A stretch of DNA of 64,000 bases from the NCBI GenBank assembly GCA_964634945.1, contig CAZWMG010000001.1:116825-180824 (forward strand), written 5' to 3'. This DNA is from an uncultured Planctomycetia bacterium. Its GTDB lineage: Bacteria > Omnitrophota > Gorgyraeia > JABMRG01. The translations under genes were made by a program, and so were the position numbers. Positions 3,335-45,234 of this stretch are shown piece by piece; position 1 is the stretch's first letter, and every line of letters starts with the position of its first letter. A model generated the notes under the pieces. It was given only the letters and a program-made list of their open reading frames with translations, did no database searches and had not been told where the DNA came from.

Positions 3335-4432
3335 TTAGCTTTTTATCAGATCTATCCTCTCGGATGCGGGGGGATGATCATAAAAGAAATGCTTAGCGAG
3401 CATTCCAGGAGTTGGATCTGATAGATTTTGCAGAGTGAGCTTTTCTATAAGATCGGAAAATACAAAAGGCTTACCGGTTATAACGATAGCGTCTTTATCA
3501 GCCTGTGTCTCATATTTTCTGGAGATCGAGTTTAATATCGGGAGAGAACATATACTGTATAGAGTGAAGACAATCGCTATTATCGGAAATGCTTCTATGC
3601 TGTATTGCGCAGAAATAAACCTAGCTGATATAGCAAAATCCAAAATAAAATTAATTATTAGGAGATTTAGCAGGATCGATAAAAAATGCAATATATTCAG
3701 CCTCCAAAAATGCATATGCTTGTGATGGGCCAGTTCATGAGCAAGCGTAGCCTCTATCTCATCGGGAGTATAATTTTCAAGCAGTGTATCCGAAAGAAGA
3801 ATTCGCTTGCTCTTTCCAATGCCGCAAACCGCGGCATTGGCCTTGGAAGTTTTCGCGCCAAGGCCTATTGTGTAGACATCAACGATCTCAATGTCCATGC
3901 TATCGGCTAATTTAGTAAGCCTCTCCTTCAATAGCTTGTCAGTGATTATTGTAAGTTTGTAAAAAAGCGGGATAACTATCTGTGGAAATATCTTCGCGAT
4001 TATTACACTCATAAAAAAATACGCGACACCTGAATATAGCCACCAAAAAACCGGTGAGATCCTTAAAAAAAGATAAAGAGATAAGATCATGATCATAGAA
4101 AGCAGTCCGGAAAATAAAACCTTTTTAATGTAATCCATTAACCATGACGATAAAGTCTGCCTTGATAGGCCAAAATCATGCTCCATTCGAAAGGATGCGG
4201 TATAGTCAAGCGGCAAGAGAATGATCTGCAAAAAGCTACCTGCGATAGCTATATATATTGCGGCTACTATGTAAGGGTTCTGCGATACCATAAGCGCAAG
4301 AGAGATCAAGAATTCAGAACCGCCGCTAAAAAATAGACCAGTGAAAAAGAGAATGGTCAGGACCCATTCGGAAACTGCTATTTTACGTTTACCAACTGAA
4401 TATAGCTTTGTTTTATCTTCACGGCTATCCAA
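3335..4432 (-). CDS. M48 family zinc metalloprotease (HtpX/Ste24-like), integral membrane
   Basis: Multiple TM helices. HExxH motif in LAHELAHHKH. C-terminal region typical of M48. Confidence 0.6.
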   Translation of the reverse strand: MDSREDKTKLYSVGKRKIAVSEWVLTILFFTGLFFSGGSEFLISLALMVSQNPYIVAAIYIAIAGSFLQIILLPLDYTASFRMEHDFGLSRQTLSSWLMDYIKKVLFSGLLSMIMILSLYLFLRISPVFWWLYSGVAYFFMSVIIAKIFPQIVIPLFYKLTIITDKLLKERLTKLADSMDIEIVDVYTIGLGAKTSKANAAVCGIGKSKRILLSDTLLENYTPDEIEATLAHELAHHKHMHFWRLNILHFLSILLNLLIINFILDFAISARFISAQYSIEAFPIIAIVFTLYSICSLPILNSISRKYETQADKDAIVITGKPFVFSDLIEKLTLQNLSDPTPGMLAKHFFYDHPPASERIDLIKS

Positions 4433-5706: not shown

Positions 5707-5836
5707 TCACCCCCGATAGTTTAGACATTTAGTCACAGGCTTACGGTTATCGTTTACAATCTTTTAAAAAAAGTAAATAAAAAACTATGCTCATAATCAT
5801 TCTACCATATAAATATTGGCCTACAAGTCAAAGTTG

Positions 5837-8800
5837 TTACTGCCAACATATATTTTTATAATCGCATCTTCCGCATCTTTTTACGCTATCATCATATTCT
5901 TGGAGTCTTGAGAAATCAAGATTCTTGATAGATTTCCAGCAGCCTCTTATCAGGGCCTCAAGCTCGTTAACCTTTTTATCGCTAATAGTAACCCGTTTAT
6001 TGATAAAATCACCTTTTTTTAATCCATATTTTATTACACTCAGTTTTACGGGCTCAATAAAGACAAGCAGCCCTTCAGTGATCACATAACCTCTCGCGGA
6101 ACTATCCCTATCAAATAAGAGCTTATAAGCGACCAGCTGCCTAAAATAGCCTTCACAATCACTGTCTCCGAGTTCCTGTGTTTTGGAAGTCATATTTTTA
6201 ATATGGTCATCCGGTTTTCCTGTTTTATAATCAACTACTCGTACGTATGGGGATCTTTCGTCCACCAATTCAGTCTTATCATATTTACCGGTAAAGATCA
6301 AGTCGTCATCAAGCGTGACAATTAGCTTCTTCTCAAGGCCAATCGGTTTCACGGGTGCTACTGATTCTGCCTTAAACCACCCTCTAAGTGTATCGACCTG
6401 CCTGCGACAGGAGAGTTCAATCGCCTTCTCGACACCCTGATATCTTAGTTCATCTAGGAACGATGCCTTAAAAAATTTAAAATCCGGGAATTTATCTTTG
6501 TCCATGAAGTATCTATATACATCTTCTAATGCCTTGTGAACACAGTTTCCAAAGGTAAGGCCTAGCTTTTTCTGGGAAGGCAATCGCAGTACATCAGTAT
6601 AGAGAAATTTTCTCTTGCAATTTATATAGCTATTCAAGCTTGTAGGATTCAGCGTAAGATTGGATATCATATCACTCAATACAGCCTCTGTGCCGATAAA
6701 AGGATCCTTCTTGTTTGTACAGGCAAGCGCGTCCGCAAGAACAATATCCTCCTTAACTAAAGACTTACTCGCGACACTCTCTAGCCCCACTAAGGAAAGA
6801 TATGAACTGCTTATCGTCCCTGGCTTTGGGCTGGCTGTATATAGCAGGTTTGCTTTCGCGCGGGTTGACGCCACATAAAAGAGTCTTGTTTCGTCATAAA
6901 AATTCATGATCTTGACCTTATTTTTGTCAGGCGCCTTATCTTTTGTCTTGAATATTTCTGGGGGCAATGGTATCAGGTCTGATTTTAAGCGCATAGGCCA
7001 ATTCTTATCCTGCAAACAAAACGGTATAATAACAGAATGGAACTCTAGCCCCTTCGAGCCATGTGCCGTAAAAATCCTTACTCCATCCTGGCTCATCGTA
7101 ACAAGATCTCCCTGAAGAGGTATGCCATGTTCTCTCTTCATATCCAGCTCATCCATAAGATCGGAAAGCGTTAAAGCGGGACTATTGAGATCTGAAACCT
7201 TTATCATATTAATAAATGATGTTAACGCGCGAAGATCCCTTATCTTTAAGATAGCGTCATCCTTGTATGCCTTGAGAATATACTTGTATATCCCCGCGTC
7301 TTCAACATATTGTAAAAGCGCGGCGTGAACAGGACGTGTGCTAATGGACTCCAGTAGCCTCCTTATGGCCCATGCCGCTTTTGCGATTGCGCATGGGTCC
7401 TTAAAGCTTGAGCTTTTACATATAGGTAATAACCTGATATCCTTATTTAATAGCTCCGCTTTCGTATCAAGCGAATCAAAACAACTTAGAAACTCTTGAA
7501 ATAATGTTATCTCATTTGAGCGCTTATCCTCTTTATTGCGCATTCTCTTGCGCTGGAGATGCCTGATAAATTCCAGTACATCTCTCATGGGGATCTGAAA
7601 ATAATCGCTAATGAGCACCCTATACAACAAGGCGTCCTTTTCCGATATCGCGGTAATGTTTCGGGTGTCGGAAAGAGCTAGGACATCAAGCATCTGCCTG
7701 ACCCTTTTTTCTGGCGTTATATCCTCTTTTCCATCGGTTGCATATGGTATACCCGCCTTTAAGAATGTGTCTATAACCTTTAAGATCTCTTTTCTCTTGC
7801 GTACTAGTATCGCTATATTGTTGTAAGGGTGCGCCTTATCATCATCAGAGACCTCGCTTGAGGATACAATGCGGGCCTTAATCTCCTTTACCTTATTCGC
7901 TAAAAAAATAAGCTCCTCCGCCTCTGTCGTAAGCTCGTGGAACTCTATTCTTTTATCACTATAATCTTTCTTAGGCGTAAGCTCTTTTAAAGTCATCCTC
8001 TCCGCGTCAGGAAGGTTGCCTATTATCTTATCGGATATCATTATTATGTTTTTGGTAGATCTATAATTATCTTTTAACGATATTGTCTTCAATTTTGGAA
8101 AACGTGATTCAAGAAGCTTGAAATTTCCTACGGACGCCCCTTGAAAACGATAGATAGACTGGTCATCGTCTCCTACGCAACAAAGATTTGGATCCTTGCT
8201 CCTTGCAAGCTCGAACAATAACTCTAGCTGTGCCCCATTTGTATCCTGAAACTCATCTACCATTATAAATGTGTACTTCTGACACAAGGCATCCCTAATC
8301 CCTTTCTCTTTTCTAATCGCCTCAAGGGCAAAGATTATCATGTCATCAAAATCATATCTTCCGCGATCATCAAAAAGATCCCTATTCTTGCCTGCCTTGT
8401 ACTCCTCATAAAGCTTATAGACAATCGCCAGGGCTTTGATTCTGGGCAGATGTTTTTCTTCGATATAAACCCCATCAGGCTTTATGGAAGTAGCGATTCT
8501 CTCAAATTCTTTTGGCCCTATGCCCTCTTTTTTTAGTTCACTGATCTTACTCTCTATCGCGTTGCGATAAATATATGGCGCCCTGAACGGCCTAATCGGA
8601 TCTATGCCATCTGTATTATCAAGTATATACTCAAATGCCTTGACCCTTTCTATGTCTGTTATCTGTATCTTATCCCGAACATAGTTTGCGGCATCTTCTG
8701 AATCAAGTAATATGGAATTTGAAAAACTATGGAAGGTACCTGTTTCAATATCATACCCATCAGGCCCTAATATCTTTACTAGGCGTTCTTTCATGGCCTT

Positions 8801-12637: not shown

Positions 12638-12674
12638 GCGGGACAGTAAGCTGGCCTACATCTTACTGTCCCGC
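12638..12674 (+). other. perfect 13-bp stem hairpin between spoVG and yraN
   Basis: gcgggacagtaag N11 cttactgtcccgc. No downstream T-run. Followed by GGAGG and the yraN TTG start. Confidence 0.5.
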
Positions 12675-13061: not shown

Positions 13062-14591
13062 ATGCTTGCAAATAGTAAATCAAGGACTATTTTTGGCGTG
13101 GCTTCACGCGAGGTCGACGTGGAGATTGATATCACGTCAGGGGTTAGGTGTTTTATTATAGTTGGGCTCCCGGATACCGCATGCCGTGAGTCTGCCCAAA
13201 GAGTAATAGCGGCGCTTAAAAACTCTGGCTTTAAGCTACCAAGCCTGCGCATTACTGTAAATCTTGCTCCTGCACACCTGCGAAAAGAAGGCGCTATGCA
13301 TGACCTGGCCATAGCTGTGACCATACTTGCCGCCTTGAATATAATTGAAAAAGAACGACTTGGTAATAAAGTATTTTGCGGCGAGCTCTCGCTTGATGGC
13401 ACCTTAAGACCGGTAAAAGGGATTCTATGCGTTGCTGATGACTTAAAAAAGCATAAGAATATAGAGCTAATCATACCCTCACAAAATATATCTGAGGCAA
13501 ATGCTGCCAAAGGCCTGCATTTCGTCGCAGCCTCCTCGCTCTCTGAGGTTGTAGAGTACCTTTCTAGCGGCACAGCCCCAATTCAAAAAACAACTCATAA
13601 AAGTAAGGTGTCCCTATCAAGCATTGATTCCCATGACTATTCAGATATAAAGGGTAATTATAGCGCCAAGCGCGCGATGGAGATAGCTGTCGCTGGTGGG
13701 CACAACATTTTACTAATAGGCTCACCCGGGGCCGGAAAAACCATGTTGGCAAAACGACTACCAACAATAATGGGCAAGCTAAGTACAGAGGAATCCATAG
13801 AAACAAGTAAGATTTACAGCATTTGTGGTCTTTTGTCAGACAAGGAACTGATATCAACGCCCCCTTTTAGAGACTTACACCACTCTGTATCTGATGCCGG
13901 CATGCTTGGTGGGGGCTCACATCATATACGCCCAGGTGAGGTAAGCCTTGCCCATAATGGGGTGCTTTTTCTGGATGAACTACCTGAGTTCAAGCGGAAT
14001 GTGCTGGAGGCGCTACGGCAGCCTATTGAGCAGGGCTTGATAAGGATATCCAGAGCAAATGCCTCCTTGAGCTACCCATGCCGCTTTATGCTAGTAGCAG
14101 CCATGAACCCATGCCCGTGTGGCTTTTTGACGCATCCAAAAAAGGTCTGCTCTTGTTCGCCGGGGCAGGTTCAAAGATATCTGTCGAAAATCTCCGGGCC
14201 TCTATTAGACCGGATAGATATGCATATTGAAATTCAGCCCATTAAATACGAGCAGATGATTGAAAGGACATGCGAAACAACTTCAGCAATAATAAAGACG
14301 CGTGCCAAAAACGCCAGATGCGTGCAAAATGAACGCTACAAAAACCACAGATACAAATGCAATGGAAAGCTACCGCATAGAGACATTGAGAACTATTGTA
14401 AAGTTTCTGATGAGGCATCTGAACTACTAAGAATGGCCATGTCTGAATTATTCATAAGCGCCCGTGCCTATGATAAGATCCTTAGGGTCTCAAGAACAAT
14501 AGCGGATCTTGACAATAAACCAATAATCGGAGCTGAACAGGTCTCAGAGGCCATAAGTTACCGCTGCCTTGATACTAAGGCCTGGCTCTAA
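13062..14591 (+). CDS. comM: YifB/ComM Mg-chelatase-like AAA+ ATPase
   Basis: N-terminal Lon-like S5 domain. Walker A GSPGAGKTMLAKR, Walker B VLFLDELPEF. C-terminal ChlI-like domain. Confidence 0.85.
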   Translation: MLANSKSRTIFGVASREVDVEIDITSGVRCFIIVGLPDTACRESAQRVIAALKNSGFKLPSLRITVNLAPAHLRKEGAMHDLAIAVTILAALNIIEKERLGNKVFCGELSLDGTLRPVKGILCVADDLKKHKNIELIIPSQNISEANAAKGLHFVAASSLSEVVEYLSSGTAPIQKTTHKSKVSLSSIDSHDYSDIKGNYSAKRAMEIAVAGGHNILLIGSPGAGKTMLAKRLPTIMGKLSTEESIETSKIYSICGLLSDKELISTPPFRDLHHSVSDAGMLGGGSHHIRPGEVSLAHNGVLFLDELPEFKRNVLEALRQPIEQGLIRISRANASLSYPCRFMLVAAMNPCPCGFLTHPKKVCSCSPGQVQRYLSKISGPLLDRIDMHIEIQPIKYEQMIERTCETTSAIIKTRAKNARCVQNERYKNHRYKCNGKLPHRDIENYCKVSDEASELLRMAMSELFISARAYDKILRVSRTIADLDNKPIIGAEQVSEAISYRCLDTKAWL

Positions 14592-15398
14592 GGGACACTC
14601 TTCGCAACACATCTATTTGCAATATGTTATACACTAATTAATTTAATAATCGACCTATATTAAAGGATTTACAATGATTCGTATTCCACGCAAAGACCAA
14701 ATTCAAGACACTCTTACCTACCACATATTCAATAGAGGTAATGCCAAGCTGGATGTTTTTCATGATAATAAGGATTGTGATTATTTTATTGGGCTCATAA
14801 AGACCTATGAAGATAGATTTAATTTATATATATACAATTGGGTCTTAATGAAAAATCATTTTCATTTTTTAGCATGCATTAATAATCCAAAATTTTTATC
14901 CAAATGCTTGGGGGGACTGCAGCAAGCATATACACAGTATCATCACAAAAAATGGAATAGCGCAGGTAGGTTATGGCAAGGAAGATTTAAGAGTCAACCG
15001 ATTCAAAATGATAGATATTTCTTTGAGTGCGGAAGATATATAGAAAGGAATCCAATGCGCGCCAAGATAGTTAAGCTTCCATGGGATTATCAATATTCTA
15101 GTTGTAAATTGTACTCATTAGGAATATCGGATTCTATAACAACGACAAACCCTGGTTATAATTCCTTTTCAAACACAATAGCTATAGAATCTCGACAAAG
15201 CGAATATAGGACATGGTTAATGAGTGGGGAGAATCGGAGTTTTGTCAACATGGATAGACCTGTAGGAAATGAAGATTTTATAAAAGGCTTATTGAAAATT
15301 AATGGTCGTCTAGTTGCAAAAAAGGCAAGACGTTCATTCAAAAATTAGTAGATTACTTAGTTCATAACTATCTATGAAATAAGCAGTTAAAAAGAGTG
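14588..15398 (+). mobile_element. REPtron-like unit: RAYT/IS200-family Y1 transposase gene bracketed by 13-bp inverted repeats
   Basis: AAGGGACACTCTT at 14588-14600 and its perfect reverse complement AAGAGTGTCCCTT at 15386-15398 flank the CDS at 14674..15348. Confidence 0.55.
14674..15348 (+). CDS. REP-associated tyrosine transposase (RAYT) / IS200-like Y1 HUH transposase
   Basis: YHIFNRGN...F, HUH motif MKNHFHFL, GRLWQGRFKS, RYIERNP, catalytic-region Y in DYQYSS. Characteristic of PF01797 RAYT proteins. Confidence 0.75.
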   Translation: MIRIPRKDQIQDTLTYHIFNRGNAKLDVFHDNKDCDYFIGLIKTYEDRFNLYIYNWVLMKNHFHFLACINNPKFLSKCLGGLQQAYTQYHHKKWNSAGRLWQGRFKSQPIQNDRYFFECGRYIERNPMRAKIVKLPWDYQYSSCKLYSLGISDSITTTNPGYNSFSNTIAIESRQSEYRTWLMSGENRSFVNMDRPVGNEDFIKGLLKINGRLVAKKARRSFKN

Positions 15399-15403
15399 TC
15401 CCT

Positions 15404-16429
15404 TTATTTTGTTGCTTCAATTAGGACGCTTCTTGGCCGGAATAATATTCGGTGTGGAATAAGTAGAAACGAAAATAACTTATCAATAAGAGGGGCCCTT
15501 ATAATAGCTTTCGCTAATGTTAACTTAAAGCCCGATTTAAGGCCTCTCGATTCTTTGCGCGCTACATAATCCTTTAAAAAAGATAAATAAGTAACCTTTA
15601 TTTTGTCAAAACCGCTATTTTTAATAGCCCTTTGCCACTGCCATACCGGATAGTAGTGGTCGTTATAACCAAAATCATCAGGATGCTGTTGAGGCTTCTC
15701 AAAAACACCTACAAAGCACTCGTTCATTAAGATTGCCCTGCCACCTTTCTTAAGGACGCGGTTAAGTTCTTTAAAAGTCCTATTCAAATCTGAACTATGA
15801 TGAATAGTAGCAGCGGCAAAAATTATATCAAAAGAACCGCTTTCAAATGGGAGCCTATCCATGTCCGCATAAATTCTCTCGAAATAGAGGCCATCCCTTA
15901 AGTAAAGGTCCGCTACCTTTAAGTAGTCTGTAATATCGACAGCTACAACATCACAACCCTTTTTAGCGAATTCACGTGACGCCCAGCAAAAAGCAGCGCC
16001 TAATTCTAAGACCTTCATCTCTGGTTCAATGGACCAATTATCGATTAAGTCAAAAAAACGATGTGAGCCCTCAGCAAAATTCTGAAATGAGCCTCCCTTT
16101 TTAAAGAAATAACTCCCATCTCCCTTGGGCAATGACATAAAAAGACTGCTGAATTTCTCTATCGACTCAGGATTTACAAAAAACTCATCACCTTTCTCTG
16201 TCCTAATACGAGGCTCGTCAGAACTAGCTTTTTGCTCTTTTACTATTTCAGGTGACGGCTCAGCTAGAAAATCAGTTACCCCTTGGTCAAGTGGAAAAGA
16301 ATACTTGCATGTACTACAAAGAATGGCGCCGTCTCTATACTCATCGTATAGCCCTGTTACTGAATCTATTTTAAAGGGCCTGCCTCCACAGATCGGACAT
16401 TTCAATATCTTGATAATATCAGCTTTCAT
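15404..16429 (-). CDS. SAM-dependent methyltransferase with N-terminal Trm112-like zinc ribbon
   Basis: N-terminal CPICGG...CSTC. Class I MTase motif I VLELGAAFCW and post-I D in VVAVD. FDIIFAAATIHH. Confidence 0.55.
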   Translation of the reverse strand: MKADIIKILKCPICGGRPFKIDSVTGLYDEYRDGAILCSTCKYSFPLDQGVTDFLAEPSPEIVKEQKASSDEPRIRTEKGDEFFVNPESIEKFSSLFMSLPKGDGSYFFKKGGSFQNFAEGSHRFFDLIDNWSIEPEMKVLELGAAFCWASREFAKKGCDVVAVDITDYLKVADLYLRDGLYFERIYADMDRLPFESGSFDIIFAAATIHHSSDLNRTFKELNRVLKKGGRAILMNECFVGVFEKPQQHPDDFGYNDHYYPVWQWQRAIKNSGFDKIKVTYLSFLKDYVARKESRGLKSGFKLTLAKAIIRAPLIDKLFSFLLIPHRILFRPRSVLIEATK

Positions 16430-18690: not shown

Positions 18691-18750
18691 GTGAAACGCT
18701 CCTTTTTTATAAAACTTATTATAATACTATATATATATAATGTCAATTGC

Positions 18751-18790
18751 AAAAAGAAAGCCCCCGAAAAAATCGGAGGCTTTCTTTTTG
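18751..18790 (-). terminator. bidirectional rho-independent terminator downstream of the porin-like gene
   Basis: aaaaa-gaaagcccccg-aaaaaat-cggaggctttc-ttttt. Confidence 0.55.
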
Positions 18791-22663: not shown

Positions 22664-23182
22664 TCAATATACAACTTGTGAAAATATCTTATAACCTTTT
22701 AACTTATCGCGGCCATTTAAAAACGCTAATTCTATCATCAGGGCAATTTCAATTATCTTACCCTTCTGCTGTTTAACCAGTTCACACATAGCCTCTGCGG
22801 TACCACCAGTCGCTAACAGGTCATCTACAATTAGGATTGACTCATTTTCGCGTATAGCATCTTCGTGCATATAAAGAGTGTCGCTTCCGTACTCTAACTC
22901 ATATGAAGCCTCTATAGTTTTGTATGGAAGTTTGCCCTTTTTTCTGACAGGGACAAACCCAGCGCCAAGCTTATAAGCAAGTACGCTACCAAGAATAAAA
23001 CCGCGCGCATCAGCCGCTACCACCTTATCTATCGGCATATTTTTATACCTGTCTACAAAGATATCAATAACCTTTTGAAATGCTTGCTTGTCACCTAATA
23101 GGGTAGTAATATCTTTAAAGACAATACCCTTTTTCGGAAAATCCTGAACATCCCTTATGTGATCTTTTAAATTTATACTCAT
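22664..23182 (-). CDS. apt: adenine phosphoribosyltransferase
   Basis: PRPP-binding motif ILIVDDLLATGGTA. 172 aa. Typical APRT N-terminal region. Confidence 0.85.
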   Translation of the reverse strand: MSINLKDHIRDVQDFPKKGIVFKDITTLLGDKQAFQKVIDIFVDRYKNMPIDKVVAADARGFILGSVLAYKLGAGFVPVRKKGKLPYKTIEASYELEYGSDTLYMHEDAIRENESILIVDDLLATGGTAEAMCELVKQQKGKIIEIALMIELAFLNGRDKLKGYKIFSQVVY

Positions 23183-24027
23183 AATATATCTCCTGCTTTT
23201 ATGCCTTCTTTTATGGACTGATCAACCACAAGCTTTTTTAGCTTATCTATGGCTCTTTTTTCTATCTGCCTAACGCGCTCCTTTGTTATTTTGAGCTTCT
23301 TTGCGATCTCCTGGAGAGTAAGGATTTTCTTCTTATCCAGCCCAAATCGGAACATAAGCACCTTCTTGTCTCTTGGATCCAGCTCATCCAATAGCTTCCT
23401 GATGCTCTCGTCTCTAAGAGCATCCGACATCCTCTCGTCAGGTAATTGCGCGGATTCGTCCTCGATCAATTCAAGAAATTTACCTCCCTGCTCCTCACCA
23501 ATAGGCGTCTCCATAGATGTTGGTTGCGACTGTGCCGCCTGCGCTATCTGACCAATCTTCCTTGCGGAAAGTTTCATCCTCTTGGCAATTTCACTGGTAG
23601 CGGGGTCTCTTTTATATTTATGCTTTAGCTCCTCAATAACCTTCTTATACCTAATAATCGTTTCTACCATGTATACAGGCACCCTGATAGTCTTTCCCTG
23701 ATTAGCGATAGCTCGCATAATATATTGACGTATCCACCATGCCGCATAGGTTGAAAATCTGTAGCCTCTATCGGGGTCATATTTTTTAACGGCTTTCATA
23801 AGGCCGATATTTCCCTCTTCGATTATATCAAGCATAGGAAGGCCGGTATAAGCATACCTCTTGGCTATGTTGACTACCAACCTAAGATTTGATTGGACCA
23901 TAATCTTGGACGCACGCGAGTCCTTCCTCTTTATCCGTCCAGCCAGTCTTATCTCTTCCTCATGGCTTAAAAGCGGAAAGGCCTCTATGTCCTTAAAATA
24001 GAGCATCAGAACATTCTTATTAAACAT
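23179..24027 (-). CDS. RNA polymerase sigma-70 family factor (RpoD/RpoS-like group, compact, no region 1.1)
   Basis: Region 2.x FSTYAAWWIRQYIMRAI. Region 3. Region 4.2 LQEIAKKLKITKERVRQIEKRAIDKLK. Confidence 0.8.
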   Translation of the reverse strand: MFNKNVLMLYFKDIEAFPLLSHEEEIRLAGRIKRKDSRASKIMVQSNLRLVVNIAKRYAYTGLPMLDIIEEGNIGLMKAVKKYDPDRGYRFSTYAAWWIRQYIMRAIANQGKTIRVPVYMVETIIRYKKVIEELKHKYKRDPATSEIAKRMKLSARKIGQIAQAAQSQPTSMETPIGEEQGGKFLELIEDESAQLPDERMSDALRDESIRKLLDELDPRDKKVLMFRFGLDKKKILTLQEIAKKLKITKERVRQIEKRAIDKLKKLVVDQSIKEGIKAGDIL

Positions 24028-24055
24028 AGCTACTGTCTACTCCTTTTTGTCTAAA

Positions 24056-24190
24056 GGGGACGGTCCTAAAGGGAGCGCCCCTGAAAATTATAAAAAAACA
24101 AAATTTATAAATTCCTGAAAGACATTTTATGAAAACACTAAAAATTAGGATAACTATGTACTCAGGGGTGCCCCCTTTAGGACCGTCCCC
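24056..24190. repeat. 29-bp GC-rich inverted repeat pair separated by a 77-nt AT-rich spacer
   Basis: Left arm 24056-24084 GGGGACGGTCCTAAAGGGAGCGCCCCTGA. The reverse complement of the right arm 24162-24190 is GGGGACGGTCCTAAAGGGGGCACCCCTGA (27/29 identical). Confidence 0.8.
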
Positions 24191-24199
24191 GTAATTATT

Positions 24200-26875
24200 T
24201 TATTTTTTAATTGACGCATGTGCTGCCGCGAGCCTAGCTATAGGGACCCTGAAGGGCGAACAACTTACATAATCAAGCCCTACCCTATGACAGAACTTTA
24301 CACTCTCAGGATCACCACCATGTTCTCCACATATACCTATCTTCAAATCAGGCTTTACGCTTCGCCCCTTTTCAACGCCCATCTTAATCAACTGGCCTAT
24401 GCCATCCTGATCAATAGTAGCAAACGGGTCATTCTCAAGAATGCCATCCTCTATATATGAAGGCAGAAATTTGCCTATGTCATCTCTCGAGAATCCAAAT
24501 CCAAGTTGCGTAAGATCGTTGGTGCCAAAACTAAAGAACTCCGCCTCTGAAGCTATCTTGTCTGCTGTAAGCGCGGCACGTGGAATCTCGATCATAGTGC
24601 CGATAAGATACTTCATGCGCACCTTGTATTTCTTAAGAACCTCTTCACAGACCTCAACAGCATGATTTTTAGTAAAGACAAGCTCATTTATATGGCCCAC
24701 TAAAGGTATCATTATCTCTGGTATTATCTTTTGACCTTTTTTGGCAAGTTCACAAGCCGCACTCATAATCGCTTTCACCTGCATCCTGTATATCTCAGGA
24801 TACGTAATGCCAAGCCTGCAGCCGCGATGTCCTAGCATGGGGTTTAATTCATGCAGATTTTGACAAAGGTCTGAAATCTTCTTTCTATCAACCTTCATCA
24901 TCTTTGCCATCTCCTGCTTTTCTTTATCGGTATGAGGTAAGAACTCATGTAAGGGCGGGTCAAGCAGCCTTATCGTGACCGGCTTACCTTTCATAACCTT
25001 AAATATGCCCTTGAAATCCTTCTTCTGGAGAGGAAGTAATTTAGCAAGTGCCTTTTCACGTGCAGCGGTGTTCTCGGCAAGTATCATTGTTCTTACAAGG
25101 GGTAAACGGTCTTTACCGAAAAACATATGCTCTGTTCGGCATAAACCTATACCCTCCGCGCCAAAGCCTATTGCCACATTCGCGTCATGAGGAGTATCAG
25201 CATTCGTTCTAACCTTAAGTTTTCTTACCTTATCAGCCCAACTCATCAAGGTTCTAAAGCTTCCTGTTACTTCAGGTTTAATAAGATCAACTTCTCCGAG
25301 GATTACTTCTCCGGTATTTCCATTTAAGGTAATAACATCACCTTCCTTTATCTTCTTGCCCTTGACAACGAAGTTTTTATCATTCGCGTTTACAGTTATT
25401 TCACTGCAGCCAACAACGCAACATTTTCCCATTCCACGTCCGACCACAGCTGCATGGGAAGTCATGCCACCAAATGCTGTTAGGATACCCTGAGCAGCTG
25501 CCATACCGCCAATATCCTCCGGCGATGTCTCCAGCCTTACGAGGATAACCTTCTCGCCCTTTGTAGCCATAACCTCAGCCTTATCCGCGGTAAAGACTAC
25601 TTTTCCTACGGCCGCGCCTGGTGAGGCAGGTAACCCTTTAGCAACTACAGATAACTTTGCTTTTGTATTTATCATAGGGTGTAGCAATTGATCGAGCTGA
25701 TGCGGCTCAACCCTTAAGATCGCTTCTTCTGCAGTAATAAGACCTTCGCCTGCCATATCTACCGCAATCTTAATAGCAGCATGCGCAGTACGTTTTCCTG
25801 TCCTGGTCTGAAGAAGGTAGAGTTTCTTATCCTGTATAGTAAACTCAAGATCCTGCATATCCCTGTAATGCTTCTCAAGTCTCTTATATATTGATACAAG
25901 TTCAAGGTATACTCTCGGCATATTATCTTTAAGATCACTGATAGGTAAAGGCGTCCTTATGCCCGCGACAACATCTTCACCCTGCGCGTTCATAAGGTAC
26001 TCACCATAAAATTTCTTTTCACCTGTACCTGGGTCTCTGGTAAAAGCAACTCCGGTTCCTGACTCTTCACCTAGATTGCCAAATACCATGGCTTGAATAT
26101 TCACAGCCGTACCCCAATCATGCGGGATGGAATTTAAGTTCCTATACTTTCTCGCACGCTCGTTATTCCATGAACTGAATACCGCGTCGATCGCCATCTT
26201 AAGCTGCTTCATGGGATCCTGAGGAAAAGAAAAGCCCTTCTTCTTCTTTATCAGCTTTTTATATTCTTCTACAATTGCTTTCAGGTCTTCCGCATCCAAT
26301 TCGGTATCAAGCTTTATCTTTTTTTTCTGTTTTTTCTGATTAAGTATGTGCTCAAAATCGGCATGCTCAACACCTAATACTACATCACCGAACATCTGGC
26401 AAAATCTGCGATACGCATCATAAGCAAAACGTTCATTGCCTGATTTTTCAGCGAGCCCCTTTACCGATACATCGTTTAGACCGAGGTTAAGCACTGTGTC
26501 CATCATGCCCGGCATAGAAACCCTTGCGCCGGAGCGAACAGAAACTAGCAGAGGATCCAAATTATCGCCCAGCTTCTTACCCATTACATCCTCAAGCTTC
26601 TTAAGATTGTTCTCGATCTGCTCCATCATGAACTGAGGGTACTTTTTTTTATTCTCATAAAACTTGATGCAGGCCTCTGTTGTTATAGTAAACCCGGCAG
26701 GTACAGGTATGCCTAGCTTTGCCATCTCCGCAAGATTAGAACCCTTTCCACCAAGAAGATTTTTCATTTTTGTATTTCCTTCGCTCTTACCACCTCCGAA
26801 GAAATATACATATTTAAATTTATTTTTTTTAACTGTTTTACCCTTTGACTTCTTCTTCGCCGCTGCTGCTACCAT
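24200..26875 (-). CDS. ppdK: pyruvate, phosphate dikinase
   Basis: 891 aa. PEP-utilising motif GGMTSHAAVVGRGMGKCCVVGC. N-terminal ATP-grasp and C-terminal PEP/pyruvate TIM domain. Confidence 0.9.
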   Translation of the reverse strand: MVAAAAKKKSKGKTVKKNKFKYVYFFGGGKSEGNTKMKNLLGGKGSNLAEMAKLGIPVPAGFTITTEACIKFYENKKKYPQFMMEQIENNLKKLEDVMGKKLGDNLDPLLVSVRSGARVSMPGMMDTVLNLGLNDVSVKGLAEKSGNERFAYDAYRRFCQMFGDVVLGVEHADFEHILNQKKQKKKIKLDTELDAEDLKAIVEEYKKLIKKKKGFSFPQDPMKQLKMAIDAVFSSWNNERARKYRNLNSIPHDWGTAVNIQAMVFGNLGEESGTGVAFTRDPGTGEKKFYGEYLMNAQGEDVVAGIRTPLPISDLKDNMPRVYLELVSIYKRLEKHYRDMQDLEFTIQDKKLYLLQTRTGKRTAHAAIKIAVDMAGEGLITAEEAILRVEPHQLDQLLHPMINTKAKLSVVAKGLPASPGAAVGKVVFTADKAEVMATKGEKVILVRLETSPEDIGGMAAAQGILTAFGGMTSHAAVVGRGMGKCCVVGCSEITVNANDKNFVVKGKKIKEGDVITLNGNTGEVILGEVDLIKPEVTGSFRTLMSWADKVRKLKVRTNADTPHDANVAIGFGAEGIGLCRTEHMFFGKDRLPLVRTMILAENTAAREKALAKLLPLQKKDFKGIFKVMKGKPVTIRLLDPPLHEFLPHTDKEKQEMAKMMKVDRKKISDLCQNLHELNPMLGHRGCRLGITYPEIYRMQVKAIMSAACELAKKGQKIIPEIMIPLVGHINELVFTKNHAVEVCEEVLKKYKVRMKYLIGTMIEIPRAALTADKIASEAEFFSFGTNDLTQLGFGFSRDDIGKFLPSYIEDGILENDPFATIDQDGIGQLIKMGVEKGRSVKPDLKIGICGEHGGDPESVKFCHRVGLDYVSCSPFRVPIARLAAAHASIKK

Positions 26876-45000: not shown

Positions 45001-45234
45001 TATTATCTCCTTAATGAATAGGTACAGGTAAAGGTAGAGGCAAAGATTTTAGACTTTCTAAAAATTTTACCTTCACCGATACATTTACCCTTTTTAAATT
45101 GACCTACATTGCACCATATATTAACCAATGAGATGTAAATTGTCAAGACAGTTTTTAACGGCTGGTTTTTCAAAACCTTTTTTCAAGACCGGTTCTCAAG
45201 CACGGGTACTTGTGCTTGAGAACCGGTCTTGAAT

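Follow-up and report, generated by a model that had tools for sequence, protein, structure and literature searches.

To our knowledge, systems in which hairpin-forming doublets built from repetitive extragenic palindromic (REP) elements, known as REPINs, are paired with REP-associated tyrosine transposases (RAYTs) have been investigated in Proteobacteria and hardly anywhere else. Bertels and Rainey set out in 2011 what defines a REPIN (PMC3116915), and RAYTs, for which a fixed genomic position has been described, were treated by Bertels et al. in 2017 (PMC5581495). Here we analysed a 64,000-nt stretch of DNA from an uncultured bacterium of the Omnitrophota (contig CAZWMG010000001.1, positions 116,825 to 180,824; hereafter, the window), in which a long inverted repeat separates ppdK from the gene for the primary sigma factor. 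We conclude, with a probability of roughly 0.8, that this inverted repeat (24056-24190) is a copy of a dispersed, non-autonomous REPIN-like element, mobilised by a RAYT and inserted in one Omnitrophota lineage. It would then be fairly ordinary bacterial selfish or junk DNA and not a locus-specific regulator. We propose that the ends of the family to which it belongs flank a RAYT-type transposase of the IS200-like Y1/HUH class that is present singly and inherited vertically.

Other extragenic repeats with inverted ends are known from bacteria. In Escherichia coli, each REP is a palindrome, imperfect and about 35 nt long, whose conserved 5' GTAG is used by the enzyme, and bacterial interspersed mosaic elements (BIMEs) affect mRNA stability and termination. 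The Correia elements (CREE/NEMIS) of Neisseria are intergenic, about 100-160 bp long, with inverted ends of about 26-30 bp; these ends form long RNA stems in co-transcripts, and the stems are substrates of RNase III and can carry promoter elements. Correia elements duplicate a TA target and are not known to be associated with a Y1 transposase. The ends of IS200/IS605 elements are different subterminal hairpins, not long terminal inverted repeats, and their transposases are multi-copy and horizontally mobile.

The inverted repeat and its surroundings

The features of the locus are as follows.

24056-24190, no strand: complete REPIN-like element of 135 nt, two inverted conserved ends and an AT-rich spacer
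24056-24084, plus strand: left arm, A-type, GGGGACGGTCCTAAAGGGAGCGCCCCTGA, adjoining the ribosome-binding site (RBS) of the sigma gene; three mismatches to the 26-nt consensus
24162-24190, minus strand: right arm, B-type, TCAGGGGTGCCCCCTTTAGGACCGTCCCC in the repeat search, adjoining the ppdK stop; its minus-strand reading is GGGGACGGTCCTAAAGGGGGCACCCCTGA followed by GTAC, with one mismatch to the 26-nt family consensus GGGGACGGTCCTAAAGGGGACACCCC
24085-24161, no strand: AT-rich spacer of 77 nt, holding a minus-strand TATAAT (24087-24092)
24200-26875, minus strand: ppdK, with domains PPDK_N, PEP-utilizers and PEP-utilizers_C; the upstream gene on the transcribed strand
23179-24027, minus strand: primary sigma factor RpoD/SigA, 282 aa, with sigma-70 regions 1.2, 2, 3 and 4; the downstream gene

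A repeat search of the window returned two 29-nt arms lying 77 nt apart and complementary at 27 of 29 positions (93%), which pair with one A-C mismatch and one G-U (in DNA, G-T) wobble. This is the longest inverted repeat in the window, and its coordinates and the identities of the flanking genes agree with those of the initial annotation. The distances to the genes had been given as 10 and 29 nt; these values are close, but 9 nt lie between the ppdK stop codon (24200-24202) and the right arm, and 28 nt between the left arm and the sigma ATG (24025-24027), with the RBS block AAAAAGGAGTAGACAGTAGCT just beyond the element. The genome had also been called AT-rich, which is accurate only in a moderate sense, the G+C content of the window being about 40%. 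None of 100 dinucleotide-preserving shuffles of the window gave any 29-mer match at three or fewer mismatches, and the earlier view that a chance palindrome is unlikely is borne out. Searches with the 29-mer, a 17-mer and the inner 22-mer at up to three mismatches found no second copy within the 64 kb.

The right arm was assigned to the B type by our own comparison with the alignment of the repeat family described below, because its TGAGTAC resembles the TGAGCAC extension of the family. In the MAFFT alignment, the A/B orientation of the window element came out the other way round; we overrode this placement on the basis of TGAGTAC versus TGAGCAC, and the orientation is uncertain.

As RNA on the transcribed strand, the element region was predicted to fold into one long stem (-64.7 kcal/mol, z -6.3), in agreement with the 29-bp stem foreseen for a read-through transcript from ppdK; as single-stranded DNA, the value was -33.3 kcal/mol (z -8.1). 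The region had no match in Rfam 15 at gathering score, and with a permissive threshold it matched only generic long-hairpin (microRNA-precursor) models, far below their cutoffs.

A dispersed and extragenic repeat family

The 18-mer GGGGACGGTCCTAAAGGG was scanned in one genome per species, and metagenome contigs were scanned additionally. Exact matches were found at 34 loci, 27 of them in only three assemblies: the Planctomycetia-labelled metagenome-assembled genome (MAG) CAZBMI01, the Omnitrophota single-cell genome AM-311-C11 (JBHPDT01) and the Omnitrophota MAG JBDRAM01. Sequence agreement among these 27 loci goes beyond the 18-mer, giving a consensus about 33 nt long, GGGGACGGTCCTAAAGGGGACACCCCTGAGCAC. 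The other seven hits are singletons in unrelated high-GC taxa, and six of them, in which the match ends with the 18-mer, are probably due to chance. In a Geminicoccaceae MAG with 56% GC (L033, 1979-1996), the match extends to 24 nt of the arm (GGGGACGGTCCTAAAGGGGACACT), and this hit could be due to mis-binning of the contig or to a genuine stray copy. Further copies of the 18-mer were present in metagenome contigs. The arm is a dispersed repeat of Omnitrophota genomes, which speaks for the dispersed side of the distinction between dispersed and unique sequence that the initial annotation had raised for the 29-mer. Within the sampled loci, we counted at least 27 arms in one MAG, 13 in the single-cell genome and 5 in a third MAG.

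Members of the family are either singlets or inverted doublets; the doublets measure 95-221 nt, and their ends are conserved whereas the AT-rich spacer varies. The window element aligned end to end with 11 other doublets of this size range from Omnitrophota-type genomes, its spacer being weakly similar near the arms to the spacers of other members, and the doublet layout recurs in 15 other doublets beside the window element. In the single-cell genome, some apparent singlets are in fact accompanied by a second arm whose outer half is a variant, GGGGACGTGCACAAAGGGGAC. No arm out of 54 lay deep within an open reading frame (ORF), in loci where ORFs of at least 120 aa cover 91% of the bases; the 13 arms that touch an ORF are all within 70 nt of the start of a maximal ORF or within 19 nt of a stop. 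Flanking direct repeats indicative of a target-site duplication were found in none of 16 doublets, in which there was just a weak A...T extension and AT-rich flanks.

Arm variants covary within elements (CCCC with GGGG, CCCT with AGGG, GGTC with GACC, GGCC with GGCC). Pairing was retained in 89.8% of the cells of the alignment, seven pairs were changed on both sides, and none of 500 shuffles reached the observed score, a result to be read with the caveat that the two arms of one doublet are inherited together. Single arms form only mini-hairpins of 3-5 bp (GGAC-G-GTCC; AGGGG-ACA-CCCCT); the left arm of the window folds alone with a z value of -4.4, and the other arms with values of -0.5 to -1.8. 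A reading of the family as a CRISPR or tandem array was rejected, as its members are scattered and stand inverted, singly or in pairs.

Contigs of the same population as the window carry an identical element, and two of them end inside or beside it, as is expected of an assembly-breaking repeat. This suggests that the element is multi-copy in the source community, and the family is likely to make contigs break during the assembly of MAGs.

A minimal form without a spacer (L008, 949-988) consists of the outer 18 nt and its reverse complement around a 4-nt loop (GGGGACGGTCCTAAAGGG-TGTC-CCCTTTAGGACCGTCCCC). Some singlet arms (L003, at about 5771-5900, L007 and L005) are situated 45-90 nt upstream of a gene start or, in L003, a tRNA gene, and a motif that recurs after them is AAATTT...TTTTTT.AAATAG; promoter-like sequence may be present on the RAYT-proximal side of the element. 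Other short palindromic repeats adjoin singlet arms in L011 (about 3500-3620), L034 (about 6120-6200) and L003 (about 5990), with the sequences GTCATTCTGAG...GAAGAATCT and GTCATTCCCGCGAAAGCGGGAATCC, suggesting further dispersed hairpin families in these genomes. On the minus strand of L029 (about 7620-7680), the palindrome GGGGACGGTTCTGGTTTTT...AAAAACCAGAACCGTCCCC, just downstream of a singlet arm, begins with the same GGGGACGG and may be a related REP variant. In L006 (2960-4608), an insertion of 1.5 kb, which encodes a DEDD transposase of the IS110 family, interrupts a doublet of the family, and GCTGTCCAAATT/GCTGTCCAATTT is repeated at both insertion junctions. IS110-family elements target REP sequences in other bacteria.

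Transposase genes flanked by the arms

At one locus (L024), the arms face each other over 774 nt encoding an IS200-like Y1_Tnp protein of 208 aa, which matched PF01797 at 50.8 bits (cutoff 23). Arms in inverted orientation flank a Y1_Tnp gene at five loci in all: L024, L019 (from the single-cell genome), L058 (an Antarctic-lake-type metagenome contig), L066 (from the third MAG) and L067. The encoded proteins are 55-84% identical to each other, and databases name these arm-flanked genes only "transposase". Their best and only significant match in NCBIfam was NF047646 (REP_Tyr_transpos, REP-associated tyrosine transposase). A profile built from nine proteins retrieved TnpA-REP of E. coli (4ER8, E 6e-7) ahead of the IS200/IS605 transposase TnpA of ISDra2 (7e-3); the profile was required, as a single-sequence search of the PDB with the L024 RAYT gave no hit. 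Both the HUH motif (N-H-x-H) and the motif of the catalytic tyrosine (Y-I-E-x-N) are invariant in the nine sequences.

In L024, L058 and L067, the RAYT gene is located between a GH94 gene and a gene for a 1074-aa protein, the products of the neighbouring genes being 71-89% identical. The sequence just inside the arms of short doublets resembles that just inside the arms of the RAYT cassettes, which gives the doublets the look of cassettes that have lost their interior. In L024 (3343-3372) and L058 (2707-2745), the reading frame of the RAYT continues into the arm, and the last codons (…SPLGPSP) translate the reverse complement of the arm; in L019 (4103-4135), a stop precedes the arm. The translation of the arm by the last codons of the RAYT gene indicates that the end of the element supplies or abuts the 3' end of the gene.

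Insertion at the ppdK-sigma junction

The sigma protein of the window is 98% identical to that of Ca. Orphnella occulta, a described taxon (PMC8542988), which places the source organism in the Omnitrophota, near that taxon. Relatives with sigma proteins 84-89% identical to it have kept the order of the genes, with glyQ, glyS, ppdK and sigma and those beyond. The spacers between ppdK and the sigma gene in the eight lineages compared are as follows.

L042: 2 nt, no hairpin
L064: 21 nt, no hairpin
L063: 28 nt, no hairpin
L062: 33 nt, no hairpin
L044: 56 nt, no hairpin
L038 (98% sigma identity): 96 nt, perfect 21-bp stem of unrelated sequence
L065: 160 nt, long palindrome of a third unrelated sequence
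Window: 172 nt, REPIN-like element

The REPIN-like element is missing from this spacer in all seven related lineages. Seven of the eight lineages, the exception being L064, have a recognisable if substituted version of the ribosome-binding block AAAGGAGTAGACAGTAGCT-ATG. The absence of the element from the orthologous spacers indicates that the 135-nt element is a lineage-specific insertion into a tight ppdK-sigma pair, and this comparison favours the mobile-element option among those that the initial annotation had listed. Gaps of only 2-56 nt in relatives suggest that the sigma gene is probably co-transcribed with ppdK, or that its promoter lies further upstream.

The hairpin of L038 (9915-9975; also in L039-L041) is a perfect 21-bp stem, ATCGAAGCTGCTTCTTAAATA, with a 19-nt loop. 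The palindrome of L065 (9864-9957) is of about 22-47 nt, with a core of about 22 bp (CGTGATGTGTATTGCGTGATAT). Neither of these junction hairpins was found elsewhere in the fetched loci, in which L038 was searched by its 19-mer.

A RAYT-like gene within the window

The window carries a RAYT-like gene of its own, in the following cassette.

14674-15348, plus strand: gene for a RAYT-like Y1/HUH transposase of 224 aa; best NCBIfam match NF047646 (63 bits, cutoff 80)
14590-14602, plus strand: left 13-nt inverted repeat AAGGGACACTCTT, bounding the RAYT cassette; a perfect repeat
15392-15404, minus strand: right 13-nt inverted repeat, AAGGGACACTCTT in minus-strand reading, bounding the RAYT cassette

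The encoded protein keeps the catalytic tyrosine and the HUH motif. Its identity to the RAYTs of L024, L019 and L058, which are flanked by REP arms, is 39-42%, and it has a C-terminal extension in common with them. The bounding repeat AAGGGACACTCTT resembles the inner half of the REP arm (TAAAGGGGACAC[C/T]C[C/T]T) and is closest to the L067 variant GGGGACACTCTT. We infer that this RAYT is a candidate trans-acting partner of the 24056 element or else related to the enzyme that serves it. The GH94 and 1074-aa genes, between which the cognate RAYT would be expected, were sought in the window by tblastn, and neither was found.

The cassette (14590-15404) is located exactly between the stop of a ComM-like Mg-chelatase gene and the stop of a methyltransferase gene. 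In that slot, five relatives with 84-89% identical sigma proteins (L042, 18680-19290; L044, L062, L063 and L065) have a different RAYT, of 160 aa, about 40% identical to that of the window and flanked by longer inverted repeats with a hairpin, GGGGACAGTGTCCC. It seems that one RAYT cassette has been exchanged for another in situ.

Other hairpins were noted in the window and its relatives. The second most striking palindrome of the window (45182-45233) is an inverted repeat of 22 bp, perfectly matched, around a loop of 8 nt (TTCAAGACCGGTTCTCAAGCAC / GTGCTTGAGAACCGGTCTTGAA). A GC-cored hairpin with a 5-nt loop at 18750-18790 (CAAAAAGAAAGCCCCCGA/TCGGAGGCTTTCTTTTTG) resembles a bidirectional intrinsic terminator beside an alginate-export-like gene, and a short GC-cored hairpin, also with a 5-nt loop, is present at 12638-12674 (GCGGGACAGTAAGCTG/CATCTTACTGTCCCGC). 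In relatives, a hairpin in the spacer between the DAGK/PAP2 and DUF502 genes is conserved between L044 (2837-2919) and L063 (2901-2947) (GTTTCGACCCTGTTTCC...GGAAACAGGGTCAAGAC).

Relationship to described systems

Among known systems, the Omnitrophota family comes closest to the REPIN-RAYT pair found in Pseudomonas and Enterobacteria, and it shares most of the defining features of that pair. The two have in common conserved inverted ends with a less conserved spacer and a long predicted hairpin with compensatory changes; the repeats are extragenic and over-represented, occur also as singlets and have no target-site duplication. In both, the same sequence flanks a Y1/HUH transposase gene in inverted orientation; the slot that this gene shares in L024, L058 and L067 is compatible with the fixed position described for RAYTs and suggests vertical inheritance. 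The spacing of the arms is similar to that of the GI REPIN of Pseudomonas fluorescens, in which 71 bp separate the 16-mers (PMC3116915). The systems differ in their hosts, which are here members of the Omnitrophota within the Planctomycetes-Verrucomicrobia-Chlamydiae (PVC) group rather than Proteobacteria, and in their arms, which are longer here (29-33 nt), with tandem GGGGAC...GGGGAC half-sites and no clear self-palindromic REP. A literature search found no report linking Omnitrophota with REP, REPIN or RAYT.

The REP/BIME system of E. coli is similar in that BIMEs are extragenic inverted REP pairs and TnpA-REP is the closest solved homologue of the flanking transposases. However, we recognised no GTAG-type cleavage motif in the Omnitrophota family, and the protein similarity is remote. 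The family resembles Correia elements and miniature inverted-repeat transposable elements (MITEs) in being an intergenic element with inverted ends, but it lacks a target duplication and is tied to a RAYT. With IS200/IS605 and their miniature derivatives (PATEs) it shares a transposase superfamily (PF01797), a single-strand hairpin substrate, which is predicted here, and the lack of target duplication, but the Omnitrophota RAYT gene occupies a conserved slot and the inverted ends are long.

Taken together, dispersed extragenic doublets of the family form hairpins, their ends flank a RAYT-like gene, and the window copy was inserted without target duplication. Several observations nevertheless weigh against the REPIN-like assignment. 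The 64-kb window of the source genome contains one copy only. A single consensus arm folds no better than shuffles (z -0.6) and is not a classical REP palindrome. The RAYTs are long forms (192-224 aa), and those of the window and L024 score 62-63 bits on NF047646, below the equivalog cutoff of 80; for the forms of 160 aa that relatives carry in the syntenic slot, the scores are 83-86 bits. The window RAYT is only about 40% identical to the REP-flanked clade and is bounded by 13-nt half-REP-like repeats, not full arms, and the cognate enzyme may be located elsewhere in the genome or have been lost. Finally, any RNA-level effect at the ppdK-sigma pair is one that we infer purely by analogy. The main uncertainty concerns the present activity of the system in the source genome and its effect on ppdK-sigma expression, rather than the identity of the element.

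Alternative explanations

The alternative that survives best, which we nevertheless consider unlikely, is that the ppdK-sigma junction benefits from a strong stem-loop and that the REPIN copy has been domesticated there and is functional. The hairpin would serve as a stabiliser of the ppdK mRNA, as an attenuator, or as an RNase III site uncoupling a highly expressed enzyme gene from the sigma gene, and different lineages would have recruited whatever palindromic element was to hand. Three of the eight related lineages (the window, L038 and L065) carry three unrelated long hairpins at the exact junction, and long hairpins are otherwise rare, at 0-2 per 15-20 kb of the same syntenic regions. In addition, the B-to-A direction of the window element, which we judged to point to the sigma gene, matches the direction of transcription. 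However, the other five lineages have no hairpin, their spacers being of 2-56 nt, and a hairpin is thus not required, and recurrent insertion could equally mean a permissive or preferred target right after the stop codon. The three independent occupants of the junction could therefore reflect a preferred target or selection for a stem. In a more far-reaching form, which appears similarly improbable, the junction of Orphnella-like Omnitrophota would be a recurrent slot in which the host exploits three independently acquired selfish hairpins as interchangeable RNA insulators or processing sites setting the ppdK:sigma expression ratio, with a REPIN-RAYT system that is active and co-evolving, in a phylum from which no such system has been described.

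It is very unlikely that the element is a classical MITE, that is, an internally deleted derivative of an insertion sequence with a DDE transposase, the arms being its terminal inverted repeats. Its shape fits (conserved inverted ends of about 30 nt, an AT-rich interior and a length of 95-221 nt), as does the lack of clear self-palindromy in single arms. However, a target-site duplication is missing from the 16 doublets, and the only long arm-bounded elements encode a Y1/HUH transposase (five loci). The sole DDE-like or DEDD gene between arms, the IS110 gene of L006, belongs to an insertion into a doublet spacer, with ends of its own. The earlier suggestion of a MITE-like relic is supported once it is narrowed to a REPIN-like element associated with a RAYT; a DDE-derived MITE is disfavoured.

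A regulatory role at this locus was assessed by scans of 23900-24350. The minus-strand TATAAT proposed in the initial annotation is present at 24087-24092, but no sigma-70-type promoter passed the consensus scan, and in the family alignment the hexamer is not conserved among the other members. Given that it lies inside an inserted element, that no site passes the consensus scan and that only 2-56 nt separate the two genes in five relatives, we do not retain it as the native promoter of the sigma gene. The scan revealed no intrinsic terminator on either strand, and the stem is followed by TTTAGAC, with no T-run, which argues against a simple terminator. The same arms adjoin many unrelated genes, and the proposal of paired operator half-sites is not supported either. 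A locus-specific palindrome evolved in place, whether as operator half-sites around a sigma promoter or as a ppdK terminator, is therefore highly improbable, despite its position between the two genes, the TATAAT within its spacer and its very stable stem, because the arms occur beside unrelated genes in other genomes, the element is missing from the orthologous spacer of relatives, no promoter or terminator passes the scans and the TATAAT is unconserved.

B-to-A is the direction of RAYT transcription in the full cassettes, and, as we judge it to point towards the sigma gene, a residual outward promoter in the window element is conceivable.

Proposed mechanism and implications

In the mechanism that we propose for the REPIN-like element, a doublet on single-stranded DNA would fold into a long hairpin, which the RAYT would recognise and cut, moving or copying it to a new extragenic site without target-site duplication. 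This scheme is modelled on HUH/Y1 biochemistry, in which IS200/IS605 and TnpA-REP act on folded single-stranded DNA. One copy would have landed between the ppdK stop codon and the RBS of the primary sigma factor gene, such that the ppdK-sigma read-through RNA is now predicted to carry a 29-bp stem (one mismatch, one wobble). By analogy with REP/BIME and Correia elements, the stem could block 3' exonucleases, be the target of a double-strand RNase, form a partial barrier to transcription between the two genes, or hinder translational coupling into the sigma gene; a role as a dedicated operator or promoter would not be expected of it.

These findings extend REPIN-RAYT-type systems to an uncultivated phylum of the PVC group with small genomes. 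As regards annotation, the palindrome should be labelled as a repeat or mobile element rather than as a site that regulates the sigma gene, and those genes named "transposase" in Omnitrophota MAGs that the arms flank should be considered RAYT-like. The well-conserved 18-mer could serve as a marker for the family. If it is true that the hairpin modulates ppdK-sigma co-expression, this would be a case of a selfish element rewiring the expression of a housekeeping sigma factor.

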